From the IMG/VR virus record IMGVR_UViG_3300042691_019786: DNA of 64,000 nt, one strand, 5' to 3'. A program made the position numbers and the translations under genes. The stretch is from a virus. Under the pieces are notes generated by a model. The model saw nothing but the letters and a program-made list of their open reading frames with translations. It was not told where the DNA came from and ran no database searches. Positions 12,921 through 64,000 of this stretch are shown one piece after another (position 1 is the stretch's first letter; each line of letters opens with the position of its first letter).

Positions 12921-12996
12921 TATTAAATATATGGTTTTTTTAAAAAGTTTAAATTTATACTACAAATGTACGAACTATTTTTACATTTGTCAAGTT
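12921..12996 (-). promoter_or_regulatory. Bacteroidetes-type sigmaA promoter (TTGACA...TACATTTG) plus TATATTTAAT element upstream of leader 1
   Basis: Matches the -33/-7 consensus; nearly identical to 55161-55235. Confidence 0.75.
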
Positions 12997-21155: not shown

Positions 21156-21156
21156 G

Positions 21157-21228
21157 TACAGCGTGTTGGAATCGAACCAACGTCCCCCACTTCTATAGAG
21201 TGGACTCTACCACTGGAGCTAACGCTGT
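21157..21228 (-). tRNA. Atypical tRNA, anticodon ATA
   Basis: Cloverleaf; ccact-ctATAga-agtgg; no nucleotide 26. Confidence 0.55.
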
Positions 21229-28259: not shown

Positions 28260-28331
28260 TTATATTCGGTGGGAACACTATATCATCCGCTCATAGAGTC
28301 TGTCAATAATATAGGTTCATCACCTCACTTG

Positions 28332-28402
28332 TATTGGGTACGGGATTCGAACCCGTGTCAACCGCTTCACTGCGGCCATCCTATCCACTAGACGAACCCA
28401 AC
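28332..28402 (-). pseudogene. tRNA-like gene (Glu/Asp-type body) with a 6-nt anticodon loop
   Basis: gccgc-agtgaa-gcggt; other arms intact. Confidence 0.55.
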
Positions 28403-28776: not shown

Positions 28777-28809
28777 AGTGCGATGCTCTACCAACTGAGC
28801 TATCTGTCC
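28777..28809 (-). pseudogene. 5' half of a tRNA, truncated at the anticodon loop
   Basis: GGACAGA-TA-GCTCAGTTGGTAGAGC-A-TCGCA-CT, then stops. Confidence 0.7.
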
Positions 28810-28996
28810 ATTGTTTTAATTTCACATTGCAAATGTATTAATAATATTTTTAATTTGCAAATATTTTTTTATTTTTTTTTCTAATCTTTCAAAGAACGTT
28901 TTCTTTAATTTTGTTTTACAAATGTATGAACTATTTTTTAAACTTCCAAATTTATTTGTAATATTTTTTTATTTTTTTTTTCAAACCTATATAAAC

Positions 28997-29027
28997 AAAA
29001 AAAGGTTGACTGTTTAGGTCAACCTTT
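28997..29027 (-). terminator. Attenuator terminator 2
   Basis: AAAGGTTGAC-ctaaaca-GTCAACCTTTTTTT; AGGTTGACCT also pairs with AGGTCAACCT in the leader. Confidence 0.85.
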
Positions 29028-29049
29028 CAAATATAGTATAGTTACTTAA

Positions 29050-29139
29050 TTAACTACATACATAGGTTGACCTCCCTAGGCTAAAATCGGCCTCGGCTGC
29101 GAAGAAGTCAAATTCAAATATGTTATTAATTGTTCTCAT
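29050..29139 (-). CDS. Leader peptide 2 MRTINNIFEFDFFAAEADFSLGRSTYVCS
   Basis: Run FEFDFFAAEADF; downstream tRNAs are Phe, Glu, Glu, Asp, Ala, Asp, Ala. Confidence 0.88.
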   Translation of the reverse strand: MRTINNIFEFDFFAAEADFSLGRSTYVCS

Positions 29140-29204
29140 TTTTTATCTTTATTAATTAAATATACACTAATATACTAAAAGTTCGTTTATTTGTCAAGTT
29201 TTTT

Positions 29205-29708
29205 TTATAAATTATCGTTTTTTTCTTCTTTAAATATTTTAACGCTTGTAGGTCCTACCTCAAATGCGTAACCTTTTTCATTAAGTCTAGATTTATTATT
29301 CTCTACAATGTTTTTATATATAAAATCTTTTTGACCTTTTGAACCTTCCTTATCTTGACCATTAATAATAATTAAGAAAGGTTCATATTCTGATAAAAAT
29401 TGTAATAAAGCTTCACCAACAGTAGATAAAATTTTAAAATACGCTTTAGTTGTTGTTTTAAATTTTTGAATCATATTATTACCAACAGAAAACGCTAAAA
29501 CATAAGTTTTTTTATTTGACACTAAATCAATAAAATCTATTTTAACGTCATAACCAGATTCTTCGTCAAATGAAATCTCATAATCATCACCATACTTTAT
29601 TATGTTAAAACCACCTTCTTTAATATAAGGTGGATAATAACTTAAATTACCAATTTCATTAATATTATCTAGATTTTCCCTTAATAATTGTTTTATACGT
29701 TTTTTCAT
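29205..29708 (-). CDS. Hypothetical late protein (IKQLLRE N-terminus), paralog of 31368-31856
   Basis: Shared YF.IL.TV.EAL.QFL and KGQKD.IY motifs; TATTTAT upstream. Confidence 0.7.
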   Translation of the reverse strand: MKKRIKQLLRENLDNINEIGNLSYYPPYIKEGGFNIIKYGDDYEISFDEESGYDVKIDFIDLVSNKKTYVLAFSVGNNMIQKFKTTTKAYFKILSTVGEALLQFLSEYEPFLIIINGQDKEGSKGQKDFIYKNIVENNKSRLNEKGYAFEVGPTSVKIFKEEKNDNL

Positions 29709-29746
29709 ACTTATAAATATAGTAACACTATTAAAAAACTTAGTTG

Positions 29747-29830
29747 TACGGATAGTCAGACTCGAACTGACACGCATATTTCAGCAAATGCTTCTAAGGC
29801 ATTCGGGTCTACCAATTCCCCCATATCCGC
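29747..29830 (-). tRNA. tRNA-Leu(TAG)
   Basis: aatgc-ctTAGaa-gcatt; long variable arm. Confidence 0.9.
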
Positions 29831-29835
29831 ATATG

Positions 29836-29915
29836 TAGCCCGAGAGGGAGTCGAACCCTCACCCCGAAGGACTGGAGCTTAAATCCAGCGTGTATACCAA
29901 TTTCACCATCGGACC
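29836..29915 (-). tRNA. tRNA-Leu(TAA)
   Basis: ctgga-ttTAAgc-tccag. Confidence 0.9.
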
Positions 29916-29923
29916 GTTTATTG

Positions 29924-29996
29924 TAGGGGTAGAGGGATTCGAACCCCCGACCTATTGCATGTAAGGCAATTGCTGCTACCGCTGAGCTATACCCCT
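29924..29996 (-). tRNA. tRNA-Val(TAC)
   Basis: attgc-ctTACat-gcaat. Confidence 0.9.
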
Positions 29997-30188
29997 ATTT
30001 TTTATCTTTAATCATATTTGTTGCACAACAATCATATAGTTCTGCTATGTTTTTCTTTCCAGGTACATTTAGATTATCCAGTAACCCACTATCAATCCAT
30101 TTCTGAATTATTTCTTCACGTATGTTTTTCATATGTTCAATATTGTCTGATATTGAATGACCTAAGTTTTCCATGTTCTTAATTTTTG

Positions 30189-30259
30189 TTGGACTGGGAA
30201 TTTCGAAATCCCGACTTCTGCCATGTTAAAGCAGCACTCTGCCTCTGAGTTACAGTCCA
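30189..30259 (-). tRNA. tRNA-Val(AAC), unusual A34
   Basis: ctgct-ttAACat-ggcag. Confidence 0.7.
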
Positions 30260-30271
30260 ATATGCTAGGTT

Positions 30272-30622
30272 TTACCCTAGCTTTATAAATGTTTCATTCT
30301 TGATGGCTTTGCTTATCCATCTAGCTAATTCAGAACCTCTGATTTCAGCTTCAAAACTAGTTGTACCTAAATCACTTGATAATTGAATATTCAACTGGCC
30401 ATCATTAGCTGATTCTATTGTTTTTATTGGAAATTGGTATAATTCACCCATAACTACGATGTTGTAATACAAATTACCAGCAATGTAGTGACTAAACGTT
30501 GCCATATTCTTAGACTTCATTAAGTCTTTTTTGATTTCTATTTCGTTAAGCATAACCATTTTCTTTTTTCCATTTATCATGCATTTGATTAATTGTATGG
30601 TAAGGACTTCCTTCACCTTCAA
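30272..30622 (-). CDS. Hypothetical protein
   Basis: ORF inside a tRNA operon; start probably MLNEIE. Confidence 0.55.
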   Translation of the reverse strand: MKVKEVLTIQLIKCMINGKKKMVMLNEIEIKKDLMKSKNMATFSHYIAGNLYYNIVVMGELYQFPIKTIESANDGQLNIQLSSDLGTTSFEAEIRGSELARWISKAIKNETFIKLG

Positions 30623-30866
30623 TTATTTCATCAAACCCATTTTCTTTTGTTATTACAGACTCTTCTGATTTAATCGCACCTCTGTACTTATCACCATAGC
30701 TACCAGTAACAGTTTTTGATGCTGGGTCGATGTCGCCCCAAGATGTTCTCCAACTTCTTGGTTCGATGTACTCAATGTAATATTTTTTTCCAGTTTCTGG
30801 GTAGAAAACTACCTCTCTTCCAGTTTCCTCTCTGTTAACTAGGAAGTCTTTTCTTACGTCTGTCAT
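30546..30866 (-). CDS. Hypothetical phage protein
   Basis: TGK.Y.IE.I...WGDIDPA.K...G.YG.KY.G pattern. Confidence 0.7.
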   Translation of the reverse strand: MTDVRKDFLVNREETGREVVFYPETGKKYYIEYIEPRSWRTSWGDIDPASKTVTGSYGDKYRGAIKSEESVITKENGFDEIIEGEGSPYHTINQMHDKWKKENGYA

Positions 30867-31072
30867 AACACTTGTTTTTACTTTCTTTTAGTCTTTAACA
30901 ACTTTTTTATTATTTTACCCCAATTGAAATTACTTTCCAATTTGTTTACGTTTGGTCTAAGGTATTTTCTAGACCCTTCCATTTTTCCGCTAATCACTGT
31001 TCTAGTGGTTATTTTGTCGTTGTTTGTTTCCATACTCTTTTTTTTACTTTTATATTATTATTTTATCTTTTG

Positions 31073-31143
31073 AGGCATCGACTGGATTCGAACCAGTGTG
31101 GGAGGTTTTGCAGACCTCTGCCTAGCCACTCGGCCACGATGCC
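31073..31143 (-). tRNA. tRNA-Cys(GCA)
   Basis: gaggt-ctGCAaa-acctc; U73. Confidence 0.92.
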
Positions 31144-31147
31144 AAAT

Positions 31148-31180
31148 AAAAAAGGCCTATCAGTTATTTGATAGGCCTTT
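31148..31180 (-). terminator. Attenuator terminator 3
   Basis: AAAGGCCTATCA-aataac-TGATAGGCCTTTTTT; alternative pairing with the leader end GGTGGGCT..GTATGTT. Confidence 0.85.
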
Positions 31181-31203
31181 CGTATGTTTATTTTATGACT
31201 TCT

Positions 31204-31278
31204 TTAACATACATAGCCCACCACGTTTACCACTAGTAAACATAAAAGTAACGCTGATTGTGTGTAAAAAGTTTTCAT
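31204..31278 (-). CDS. Leader peptide 3 MKTFYTQSALLLCLLVVNVVGYVC
   Basis: Run LLLCLLVVNVV; downstream tRNAs are Cys, Val, Val, Leu, Leu. Confidence 0.88.
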   Translation of the reverse strand: MKTFYTQSALLLCLLVVNVVGYVC

Positions 31279-31367
31279 AGTTTTATTCTTTTTTATTATT
31301 AAATATATCACATCTATTAAATGTTATACAAATGTACGACATTTTTTTAGATTTGTCAAGACTTTTT

Positions 31368-31856
31368 TTAATTATTTTCTATTTTTTTTAAAGCTGGTGA
31401 ATCTAAAGGGTCAGCTAGTTCATAACCTAACGCTCTTAGTTCAGCAGCATTTTTTTCTATTACTTGATGATAGATGTTATCTTTTTGACCTTTCTTGCCT
31501 CTAGCGTCAGCACCAGCTAAATCAACATAATCTGGTTGAACTTCTTCTAAAAATTGCATAAGCGCTTCTTTAACTGTTGCTAAAATTTGAAAATAATGTC
31601 TAACATCAGTTTTATCAACAGAAATAGTTCTACCATCAACACCAAAACTAAAACTATATGACGTGTCATCCATAGGGTTAACATACGCTGCAATATTTAT
31701 ATTTTTATCTAATACCTCATCGTAAAAGAATGTTTCGTAATTATTACCGCTAAATTTATGAAAATGAAACTGACCTTTTTTATATCTTGGATTGCTTAAC
31801 TCACCAACTTCAGATATTAAACTTTCTCTTAGTAATTCTTTTATTAATTTCTTCAT
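31368..31856 (-). CDS. Hypothetical late protein (LIKELLRE N-terminus)
   Basis: Paralog of 29205-29708. Confidence 0.7.
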   Translation of the reverse strand: MKKLIKELLRESLISEVGELSNPRYKKGQFHFHKFSGNNYETFFYDEVLDKNINIAAYVNPMDDTSYSFSFGVDGRTISVDKTDVRHYFQILATVKEALMQFLEEVQPDYVDLAGADARGKKGQKDNIYHQVIEKNAAELRALGYELADPLDSPALKKIENN

Positions 31857-31905
31857 ATTAATAAATATATTGACAAATTGAAAATTAATCGTTATAATTA
31901 TAATT

Positions 31906-32028
31906 ATGGGATATGTTTATTTGTTATTTTGCGTCAATAAAGACGGTAGTGAAGGTTATAAGATTGGTATTACCAAGAATGACCCAAATAAACGTGTAAA
32001 GCAATTGCAGACTTTTCACAAATTATAG
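31906..32028 (+). pseudogene. Truncated N-terminal copy of the T5orf172-like gene
   Basis: MGYVYLL...YKIGITK...KRVKQLQT, then stop. Confidence 0.7.
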
Positions 32029-32050
32029 ATATTTATTAATAAAAATAAAA

Positions 32051-32677
32051 ATGAATTATATTTACGTATTGAAAGACCCTATAACTGATGAAATTAAATA
32101 TGTTGGTAAAAGTATTAACCCATATGATAGATGTAGGAAACATATTAGCGAAGCTAAAATTACTGGTGCTAATAATCATAGAATTAATTGGATAAAATCA
32201 TTATTAAAACTTGGTTTAACCCCCAATATGGAAATAATGGATGAAATAGATGGTGAATGGGAATGGTTAGAACAATATTGGATAAGTCAATTTAAAACAT
32301 GGGGTTTTAATTTAACAAATGGAACTTTTGGTGGTGAAAATCCTCCTTCATGGAAGGGTAGAACACATACTGATGAATATAAAGAAATTAGAAGAAAATT
32401 AATGAAAGATAATAACCCAGCTAAAAATATGACAAATGAGTGGAAAGAAAATATTAGTAAAGCACATAAAAAAAACAAATACAATCCTATAGTAGCGTCT
32501 GAGGTTAATAAGAAAAAAGTGTGTCAATTAACTTTAAGTGGTGATGTAATTAAAGTTTGGTCTTCAATAACAGACGCAGCGAAAGGTATTGGTCTTAAAA
32601 GTAGTTATGGTATTGGTGCTGTATGTCGTGGTGAAAGAAATAAATCTGGTGGTTTTAAATGGAAATATTATGAATAA
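32051..32677 (+). mobile_element. GIY-YIG homing endonuclease with NUMOD/IENR1 C-terminus
   Basis: YIY.L.DP...YVGK...R...H and W.SI..AA...C.G.R..SGGFKWKY motifs. Confidence 0.85.
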
Positions 32678-32999
32678 AGGTTTTGTATATCTATTACTAG
32701 CGATAGATGAAAAAGGTGATGAAAAATATAAAATAGGTGTAACTAAACGTAGCATAGCTAAACGAATTTCTGAATTACAGACTGGGAACGCATATAAGAT
32801 TCAATTACTTAAATTTTATAAGTCTGAAAACTACTTAAAAGTAGAACGTTTTTTACATAGAAAATATATGATAAAAACTGAAGCTGAAAATGAGTGGAGA
32901 ACACTTACTGATGAACAAGTTATTTCATTTATTAAAGATTGCGAGGAAGCCGATAATAATATCAACTTCCTTTTAAAAAACAATCCTTTCTATAAATAA
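32670..32999 (+). CDS. T5orf172/GIY-YIG-like protein
   Basis: GFVYL...YKIG.T....RI.ELQTGN...E..LH...EW. Confidence 0.8.
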   Translation: MNKGFVYLLLAIDEKGDEKYKIGVTKRSIAKRISELQTGNAYKIQLLKFYKSENYLKVERFLHRKYMIKTEAENEWRTLTDEQVISFIKDCEEADNNINFLLKNNPFYK

Positions 33000-33240
33000 T
33001 TAAAGACTTCGAAATCTTTTAACAATCTCTTCATCTGACAACGGTGCATGTCTTTTGTACCATTTAAGTAATACTTTATCACCGTTAATTACCATATCAG
33101 AAATACCCCATTCTCGAATAATATCTTTATGATACCTAGTTTCTATAACGTTTATTACACTTCTTTTGTAATCTTCATCCCAGAAACCTAGTATTTCCAT
33201 ATTCTTCTGGTGTAATTCTAAAAATTCTTTTCCGTCCATA

Positions 33241-55155: not shown

Positions 55156-55265
55156 TTTTATATTAAATATATCGTTTTTTCTAAAAAGTTTAAATTTATA
55201 CTACAAATGTACAAACTTTTTTTCTATTTGTCAAGTGTTTTTGTAATTATTTTTTTAATTTTTTC

Positions 55266-59671: not shown

Positions 59672-59723
59672 AACTTTTTTTTAATAAATATATCAATAAT
59701 AATGCCAAAGTAAACATTATTTG

Positions 59724-59794
59724 TGGTCTTAGAGGGAATCGAACCCTCACTATCGGTTTTAGAGACCGTTACGCTGCCGTTACATCATAAGACC
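59724..59794 (-). tRNA. Amber suppressor tRNA (CTA)
   Basis: Cloverleaf; acggt-ctCTAaa-accga; own promoter motif at about 59806. Confidence 0.88.
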
Positions 59795-63336: not shown

Positions 63337-63341
63337 ATGTG

Positions 63342-63419
63342 TGCCCTAGACTGGCTACGAACCAGTTATCCCATAGATATCTTTCGATACCCATCTGATA
63401 AAGTCTAAACTTCTAGAGC
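63342..63419 (-). ncRNA. tRNA-like RNA without an anticodon loop
   Basis: GCTCTAG/CTAGGGC acceptor, T arm, central GTATC-GAAA-GATAT hairpin. Confidence 0.5.
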
Positions 63420-63423
63420 ATAG

Positions 63424-63498
63424 TTGGCCAGAATCTGTTTTTTTTACTTTGCTTAGAATATAGTATAGTTAAATTGCTGAATAGATTCTTTCTGCCAA
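63424..63498 (-). ncRNA. TCAGCAA-stem RNA
   Basis: TTGGC..AGAATCT-ATTCAGCAA...AGATTCT.GCCAA. Confidence 0.55.
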
Positions 63499-63510
63499 TA
63501 AGTTTATCTC

Positions 63511-63790
63511 AAGATGGTTTTTTGTGTTTTTTCATCCCAGCGGATTAACCCTTTTTACGTCTTCGGCTACGCTTTGGCGAGAGTCTACTGTTATTCGACT
63601 ACATCCTACTTGCACCTATTGGGGTGGTTGTGACGTGGTTTTTGTTTTAATTGGAAACCTAACCAATTTTGTTTAATTCCGTTGCAGTAAAAACCATCCG
63701 AGTCCTTCTTTCAAAGGTCATATTGTCTTTCTGGCATACCAACTAAACTCTCATAGTAATTGTATCTGTTTTGGTTGCAGAACCCATCTT
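63511..63790 (-). ncRNA. ~280-nt RNA closed by a CTGCAA-variant stem
   Basis: AAGATGG-GTTCTGCAA...CCATCTT with a nested second motif; follows a promoter and boxA. Confidence 0.5.
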
Positions 63791-64000
63791 TTTAGATAAT
63801 ATTTTTAATATGTAAAGAACGTTGTTTTTAATTATATTACAAATGTACTAATAAATATGTGGTTTGTCAAGTAAAATCAAAAATATTTTTAATTTATTTT
63901 TTTGTACCACCCATTTCATTCTGTTTATCGTTTGTAAGTTCCTCTAAAACAACTAAAACGTTATGTTTAGTCGTTAAATCATGAATCACATTAACAACAT

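Follow-up and report, generated by a model that had tools for sequence, protein, structure and literature searches.

The multivalent branched-chain leaders of Enterobacteria, ilvL (of ilvGMEDA), ivbL (of ilvBN) and leuL, are among the described systems that come closest to the locus reported here. In these systems, Leu and Val codons form a block within a short ORF, and one leader senses several amino acids. Their antiterminator overlaps the end of the ORF, and the first regulated gene is immediately preceded by an intrinsic terminator. The pheST leader of E. coli is a leader-peptide attenuator of aminoacyl-tRNA synthetase genes. T-box riboswitches bind uncharged tRNA directly and need neither a ribosome nor an ORF. 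Leader-peptide attenuators are known for biosynthetic and synthetase genes, the His leader of hisS paralogs in bacilli being one of them; leader peptides are listed for hisS and none for tRNA genes (PMC2965389).

Here we describe such a locus, Att3, in a phage. It lies in a stretch of 64,000 nucleotides (virus record IMGVR_UViG_3300042691_019786), the whole of which is called the window below; all Att3 features are on its minus strand. We consider it likely that Att3 is a codon-specific, ribosome-mediated (leader-peptide) attenuator that gates an operon of Cys, Val and Leu tRNA genes. Of the parts by which leader-peptide attenuators are recognized, an ORF, control codons, a terminator and a mutually exclusive antiterminator are present. 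The features listed above for ilvL, ivbL and leuL are common to Att3 as well. Unlike these leaders, Att3 would regulate tRNA genes, resides in a phage, carries a Cys codon in its block and has no sequence homology to them. As with pheST and the His leaders, attenuation would act on a component of the translation apparatus and not on biosynthesis. The product of pheST or hisS is, however, the charging enzyme, whereas the product of Att3 is tRNA itself, so its feedback would act on the amount of tRNA. Like T-boxes, Att3 would be a transcription attenuator that reads the state of tRNA and controls translation-related genes; no T-box match was obtained up to E = 10 in 31100-31340.

The preliminary description of this DNA likened the locus to an ilv/leu leader. 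The resemblance holds for the mechanism and fails for homology, as no Rfam leader family is matched at threshold. The Leu leader family is not among the matches listed up to E = 10. Phe_leader (RF01859) scores 29.9 bits and Thr_leader (RF00506) 21.0 bits, both against a gathering score of 55, and Bacteroid-trp (RF01692) scores 22.1 bits against 49, so that Att3 is not a member. We rejected membership in any of these families, because the matches are below threshold and mostly carried by the terminator; the likeness is one of architecture only. Bacteroid-trp, the tryptophan leader-peptide RNA of Bacteroidetes, shows that attenuation is used in the phylum of the presumed host (see below), but it controls trp genes and not tRNA genes.

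What is new is thus the use on phage tRNA genes; the mechanism itself is already known. Our literature search, conducted mostly outside subscription journals, found no paper on leader-peptide attenuation of tRNA genes or in phages. A possible precedent, a leader ORF before the tRNA-Phe genes of E. coli, was discarded, since about 100 nt upstream of pheV in K-12 contain no such ORF or attenuator.

The phage, the leader and the tRNA genes behind it

The window has a G+C content of 31.7% and 34 tRNA genes, every one of them on the minus strand together with 56 of the 63 long ORFs. Near-identical DNA was found in lake and freshwater metagenomes and related contigs reach 247-268 kb, from which we conclude that the phage is a jumbo phage of fresh water. 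Comparison of 29000-33000 with GenBank phages by blastn gave tRNA-level matches only and no close cultured phage. A Shine-Dalgarno-like core was detected in just 2 of the 63 long phage ORFs, and A is enriched at positions -13 to -8. Promoters of the TAnnTTTG type and start sites devoid of Shine-Dalgarno sequences are typical of Bacteroidota (PMC6847099). Because of the promoter motif and the start-site features of the phage, we infer that its host belongs to this phylum.

The promoter of Att3 (31329-31359) consists of TTGACA, 17 nt and TACATT(TG), that is TTGACA-N17-TACATTTG. The second element can also be read as the Bacteroidota -7 box TAnnTTTG, the G of which is at -5 (PMC6847099), and transcription would start near 31324. 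Sites of the form TTGAC-N17-19-TAnnTTTG occur five times in the window, with 0.42 expected, and three of the five head leaders. Between promoter and ORF lies the TATATTTAAT box (31298-31307), which is common to all four leaders of the window discussed below. It could be an element of the 5'-UTR or a second -7-like box. Four of its five minus-strand copies sit 6-19 nt before a leader ATG. The combination of the box, ATGARAAC and TATGT is matched four times at three leaders (twice at Att3), with no match expected.

The leader ORF (31204-31278) starts with ATG at 31278 and ends with TAA at 31206-31204; its 24 codons are MKTFYTQSALLLCLLVVNVVGYVC. It has no Shine-Dalgarno sequence, and A is found at -3, -6, -12 and -13 before the ATG, all of which are positive start determinants in Flavobacterium (PMC6847099). 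Presumably, the ORF is translated in the host. The leader run LLLCLLVVNVV noticed in the preliminary description is indeed encoded by codons 10-20. Control codons 10-17 (31228-31251) read TTA CTT TTA TGT TTA CTA GTG GTA (LLLCLLVV), and codons 18-20 read AAC GTG GTG. Among 654 ATG ORFs of 15-45 codons in the window, only the Att3 ORF has at least 10 of 11 consecutive residues that are L, C or V; one other small ORF reaches 9/11 by chance. After MKT, 12 of 21 residues are L, C or V, compared to 15% in the long phage ORFs (binomial p = 1e-5). The two phage tRNA-Leu genes have TTA and CTA as their cognate codons, and the leader lacks GTT, the codon cognate to tRNA-Val(AAC). The Att3 peptide has no Pfam family.

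The first gated gene is tRNA-Cys(GCA) at 31072-31143 (Rfam tRNA, 60.8 bits); the window has no other Cys tRNA. In the presumed unit it is followed by tRNA-Val(AAC) at 30188-30260, tRNA-Val(UAC) at 29923-29996, tRNA-Leu(UAA) at 29835-29915 and tRNA-Leu(UAG) at 29746-29830. The succession of one Cys, two Val and two Leu genes, as originally proposed, is therefore right in genes and order, but the Val and Leu genes lie 0.9-1.4 kb downstream behind small ORFs. These ORFs encode 51, 106, 116 and 59 aa, the last one being located between the two Val genes, and none of the four matches a Pfam family. No terminator-like site was found on the minus strand between 31148 and 29746. The same interval contains no TTG/TAnnTTTG promoter on that strand, and its only other TAnnTTTG has no TTG at -33. 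Since the terminator lies 4 nt before tRNA-Cys, every transcript of tRNA-Cys must cross it. On these grounds, the whole stretch from Cys to Leu would be one transcript.

Contigs from RNA-labelled libraries (four runs) cover the tRNAs and the ORFs of a relative, and none covers the leader or terminator; contigs of this kind cannot reveal transcript ends or levels. One of 151 nt, from a freshwater metatranscriptome, equals 29845-29995 (Leu(UAA)-Val(UAC)) without differences. It gives a weak hint that a tRNA precursor is present as RNA, with DNA carry-over as another possible source. The anticodons of two tRNA genes of the window, Val(AAC) and Tyr(ATA) (21156-21228, minus strand), begin with A, an uncommon feature in bacteria. 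In relatives, Val(UAC) takes the place of Val(AAC).

Two mutually exclusive helices

The intrinsic terminator (31148-31181) has a stem of 12-13 bp at 31181-31150 with a 6-nt loop, followed by T6 and then by ATTT up to 31144. Folded alone, it has an energy of -17.9 to -19.4 kcal/mol, and it presumably functions as a terminator in the host. Its 5' arm, AAAGGCCUAUCA, is used by the terminator and by an antiterminator alike. The 5' strand of the antiterminator (seg2, 31206-31223) is the end of the leader ORF, and its 3' strand (31169-31188) comprises AACAUACG and the terminator 5' arm. In the outer helix, ORF nt 56-64 (UGGUGGGCU) pair with GGCCUAUCA of the terminator 5' arm. In the inner helix, ORF nt 66-73 (UGUAUGUU) pair with AACAUACG, as far as the first base of the stop codon. 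Both helices together amount to -18.1 kcal/mol. Two structural claims of the preliminary description are borne out by these coordinates: the extended antiterminator does run into the stop codon, here the first base of TAA, and the terminator, said to end about 5 nt before tRNA-Cys, leaves a gap of 4 nt between T-run and gene. The whole Att3 region folds better than 200 of 200 shuffled sequences (z = -4.8).

A third hairpin, P1 (31223-31243), is formed within the ORF by nt 36-44 and nt 48-56, over codons 12-19. It may be a pause, hold-back or anti-antiterminator hairpin, which is a guess. P1 can be extended onto seg2 by pairing of nt 24-32 with nt 57-64, and this extension is weak and rich in G-U pairs.

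To place the ribosome, we masked the RNA around the first base of the A-site codon, 18 nt on its 5' side and 8 nt on its 3' side, before folding. When the A site is at codon 16 or an earlier one, seg2 captures the 5' arm completely (-18 kcal/mol); at codon 17 it does so in part, and from codon 19 to the stop no longer. A stall at codons 10-17 thus leaves seg2 free, and the effective sensor is LLLCLLVV. It is a portion of the longer run LLLCLLVVNVV noted earlier; according to the masking folds, N18-V19-V20 belong to the hairpins, as does the final YVC, and the amino acids of both vary among relatives. As the productive stall window has one Cys and two Val codons, sensitivity to Cys and Val may be weak.

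In full-length Att3 RNA the terminator always wins, as it likewise does in classical attenuators, so the decision between the folds must be kinetic. When the transcript is truncated and carries no ribosome, the antiterminator is the minimum-energy fold (-24 kcal/mol, with 8 nt of the arm captured). Because of this, read-through may be the default of Att3 without translation, unlike in the trp leader. For the same reason Att3 could respond to translation generally and not to specific codons, which we weigh below.

We propose the following course of events. Polymerase would start at the promoter at 31359-31329 and transcribe the 24-codon leader with a ribosome close behind. If codons 10-17 are decoded quickly, the ribosome would cover seg2 up to the stop and keep it single-stranded. 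The terminator 5' arm would then pair with the 3' arm, and transcription would end at the T-run before tRNA-Cys. If usable Leu-, Cys- or Val-tRNA is short, decoding would be slow and the ribosome would wait upstream of seg2. Free seg2 would capture the 5' arm as it emerges and block the terminator. Polymerase would consequently read through into tRNA-Cys, the small ORFs, both tRNA-Val and both tRNA-Leu genes. The stall would in this way decide the fold, and read-through at Att3 would be regulated. As the products of the operon are the very tRNAs that relieve the stall, the circuit would exert direct negative feedback on decoding capacity.

Conservation and covariation among relatives

Relatives were searched for with a pattern of promoter, box and ATGARAAC, which gave 19 loci on viral contigs and 26 on metagenome contigs. 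Conservation of promoter, box and start is circular, since the pattern demanded them; the sequence downstream of ATGARAAC is free of this circularity. A promoter-free pattern specific for Att3 gave no new loci in viral contigs, the leader pattern had no match in GTDB genome contigs, and a search with the neighbouring 162-aa protein revealed no further distant relatives.

In total, 15 distinct Att3-type leader regions from lake viral and metagenome contigs were obtained, and they encode 13 distinct peptides. In all 15, tRNA-Cys(GCA) comes 134-146 nt behind the ATG, and Val(UAC), Leu(UAA) and, in most cases, Leu(UAG) come next. The spacing between Cys and Val ranges from 256 to 1255 nt, which marks the small ORFs in between as variable cargo. 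Frame, start and stop position are kept in 15/15, the stop codon itself being TAA in nine, TGA in four and TAG in two.

Codons 10, 12, 14 and 15 encode Leu in all 15 leaders. Two synonymous codons are used at each of positions 10, 14 and 15, including switches between the TTR and CTN families (TTA versus CTT/CTA). Codon 13 is TGT throughout, and Val (GTA or GTG) is invariant at codon 17. Within the core, three relatives have Ala at codon 16 and four have Asn at codon 11, neither of which matches the tRNAs. Either Ala or Val is found at codon 9, in six different codons. Three to five different amino acids occur at each of codons 4-8 and 18-23 (variants at 18-23 are V/K/G/E, V/M/S/C, G/S/F/I, Y/L/G and V/D/G/L). 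Val codons of the leaders are GTA (27), GTG (27), GTC (7) and GTT (2), compared to phage genes, where GTT makes up 54% of Val; by this measure the leaders prefer the codons of tRNA-Val(UAC).

The variable end of the ORF retains its pairing. When the 3' arm is left out, all 15 transcripts adopt the extended antiterminator, in which the last codons pair with 8-11 nt of the 5' arm. Energies of the antiterminator folds are -15.6 to -23.9 kcal/mol, against -13.6 to -18.5 kcal/mol for the terminators. The ORF is thus under two selection regimes: amino acids are kept at the control codons, and RNA pairing is kept at codons 18-23.

By sequence, the relatives fall into group A (11 sequences) and group B (four). 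MAFFT failed to register the two groups with each other, or the 3' strand of the inner helix, and such pairs were counted per sequence from folds. The relatives are linked by descent, and few independent changes stand behind the following counts of covariation: in the outer helix of group A, 93.9% of cells are paired and two pairs have double changes, and in the terminator alignment 95.5% are paired and four pairs have compensatory double changes. Sliding the partner of the outer helix by 1-3 columns lowers the paired share to 31-52%. Column 109 in the 5' arm covaries with column 61 in seg2 and column 128 in the 3' arm, the combinations 61/109/128 being G/C/G, G/U/G and A/U/A. Such three-way covariation is what two mutually exclusive helices predict. 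The inner helix exchanges U-A, G-C and A-U at position 68, and A-U and U-A at position 69.

Group B has a different terminator (AACCCGAAG...) and a seg2 re-coded to match it (GUUUCGGGCUGUG), with 12 pairs and one mismatch. Duplexes across the groups reach -9.7 and -13.0 kcal/mol, versus about -16.5 kcal/mol within a group. In P1, 93.9% of cells are paired in the 11 group A sequences, and all changes are one-sided. The apical 5 bp of P1 are retained in the same columns in group B, with U-A changed to C-G.

Four paralogous leaders in one phage

The window contains four leaders with a common type of promoter, the TATATTTAAT box and an M-K/R-T start. Besides Att3, these are Att1 (box at 12931), Att2 (box at 29164) and Att4 (box at 55171), all on the minus strand. 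Att1 has the core TTYMTYQPKQYTKGGQPQ and stands before Pro, Pro, Gln, Tyr, Thr, Gly, Gly, Lys and Lys tRNAs. Att2 has FEFDFFAAEADF and precedes Phe, Glu, Glu, an odd tRNA, Asp, Ala, Asp and Ala. Att4, with INIHMISINNWRRNSFHN, precedes His, Trp, Ser, Ile, Asn, Arg and Arg tRNAs. In a 4x4 table of leader residues against tRNA sets, the diagonal holds 20, 12, 12 and 20 (chi2 = 82, p = 5.6e-14). The true assignment of leaders to clusters scores 64, and the next best permutation 45. Across 22 leader-cluster pairs, the core match is 0.63 for the own cluster type and 0.10 for the others, with non-overlapping ranges. In 4/4 leaders, complementarity to the 5' arm of the downstream terminator is present in a G/C-rich stretch that lies a few codons ahead of the stop.

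These results bear on what else Att3 might be. The switch might sense translation generally (ribosome availability, initiation or coupling of transcription with translation, for example after host shut-off), in which case the operon would open whenever, for any reason, no ribosome arrives at seg2 in time. Two properties of the RNA fit this: the ribosome-free truncated transcript already folds the antiterminator at -24 kcal/mol, and the P1 extension, which could keep seg2 occupied, is weak, with many G-U pairs. A general sensor would nevertheless leave unexplained why synonymous changes preserve Leu, Cys and Val, and why the codons of each of the four leaders specify the amino acids of the respective cluster. 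We regard it as unlikely.

Taken alone, Att3 is the one of the four leaders that is easiest to mistake for a hydrophobic peptide. Runs of L, V and C are typical of membrane peptides, the unrelated small ORF mentioned above scores 9/11, and the core LLLCLL is conserved as peptide. One could therefore picture a small membrane or toxin-like product with an ordinary terminator behind its ORF, tRNAs made by leak-through and a coincidental match in composition. The C-terminal third, however, varies in amino acids and keeps its pairing with the terminator arm, and the three paralogous leaders are not hydrophobic, each fitting its own tRNAs in the same frame. Moreover, tRNA-Cys has no other route to transcription, and the peptide belongs to no Pfam family; we find this explanation very improbable. 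We give equally little credence to a hairpin that is constitutive, be it a stabiliser, a processing signal or the terminator of the upstream gene, beside which ORF and complementarity would have no regulatory role. For an upstream-gene terminator the promoter is misplaced, as it sits between that gene and the ORF, and neither three-way covariation nor the complete re-coding in group B is expected of a lone hairpin. Hairpins resembling intrinsic terminators are admittedly common beside phage tRNA genes. The RNA-library contigs, covering tRNAs and not the leader, would also suit a constitutive hairpin, but this proves nothing either way.

Returning to Att3 as a codon-specific attenuator, we put forward a wider proposal, which we hold possible and decidedly more speculative: the four leader-peptide attenuators may together form a tRNA homeostat of the phage, induced by stalls, in which 19 of the 20 amino acids (not Met) are divided among the leaders and each leader turns on its own block of tRNA genes only upon stalls at the codons concerned. 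If this is true, the phage tRNAs would be an inducible, self-limiting answer to depletion of host tRNAs and not simple constitutive codon supplementation. Such depletion might be caused by anticodon nucleases, by other tRNA-cleaving defences or by the host shut-off of the phage itself. Recent work shows that phage tRNAs can rescue phages from host defences that cleave tRNA (PMC10264068, PMC11555353, PMC12409363); in their titles and abstracts, these papers concern the tRNAs themselves. Such defences would give a reason to replace particular tRNAs during infection, and thus a plausible use for an inducible supply. The reasons why phages carry tRNA genes, and the control of these genes, have been under debate for decades (PMC10264068).

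A leader-peptide attenuator with the stall-relieving tRNA as its product would be a new regulatory circuit, in which decoding capacity is measured by codon group and directly corrected. Classical attenuation of amino-acid and synthetase genes would gain tRNA genes as a target and viruses as users, and the phage would show how an attenuator can be copied and its codons adapted to other amino acids. It would also become possible to test whether phage tRNAs are an inducible response to host immunity directed at tRNAs. Att3 itself is a self-contained element of about 180 nt and could serve as a codon-specific sensor of translation speed.

Several features around the leaders deserve mention. Directly upstream of Att3 (31368-31856) and Att2 (29205-29708), both on the minus strand, are paralogous genes for proteins of about 165 aa, which begin with MKK.IK.LLRE and have weak sub-threshold matches to DUF6934. 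This points to duplication of the whole module of gene, leader and tRNAs as one unit. Two boxes of the TAnnTTTG type, ATACATTTGTA and ATACATTTGCA, lie on the minus strand in 28860-28995, between the Att2 terminator (29028-29000) and tRNA-Phe (28771). Given this position, the Phe, Glu, Asp and Ala tRNAs may also be transcribed from promoters downstream of the attenuator. The corresponding gap between terminator and tRNA at Att3 is only 4 nt. Just upstream of tRNA-Phe, 28777-28809 on the minus strand resembles the 5' half of a tRNA (acceptor strand, D arm and start of the anticodon stem); it has no ARAGORN call and is probably a tRNA remnant.

Also in the Att2 cluster, ARAGORN calls a tRNA with a four-base anticodon (gtga) at 28331-28402 on the minus strand. 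In the relatives L002, L010 and L017, this place is taken by tRNA-His(GTG). The control block of the Att2 type (FEFDFFAAEADF) has no His codon, and one His is present near the 3' end in some relatives.

A promoter of the same type as those of the leaders (TTGACA...TACATTTG) is found at 63870-63840 on the minus strand. It is followed by about 500 nt with no evident ORF and then by tRNA-Met (63337); the stretch 63340-63870 may be a structured non-coding RNA. Three ORFs of the GIY-YIG homing-endonuclease type (31906-32028, 32051-32677 and 32589-32999) adjoin the tRNA region on the plus strand and are among the few plus-strand genes of the window. One is a full gene with a NUMOD domain, and the two others are shorter GIY-YIG-like ORFs. 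Finally, a tRNA at 59723-59794 on the minus strand has the anticodon CTA; it is of the amber suppressor type and is called Pyl by ARAGORN. TAG is used as a normal stop elsewhere in the window, for example in the Att4 leader.
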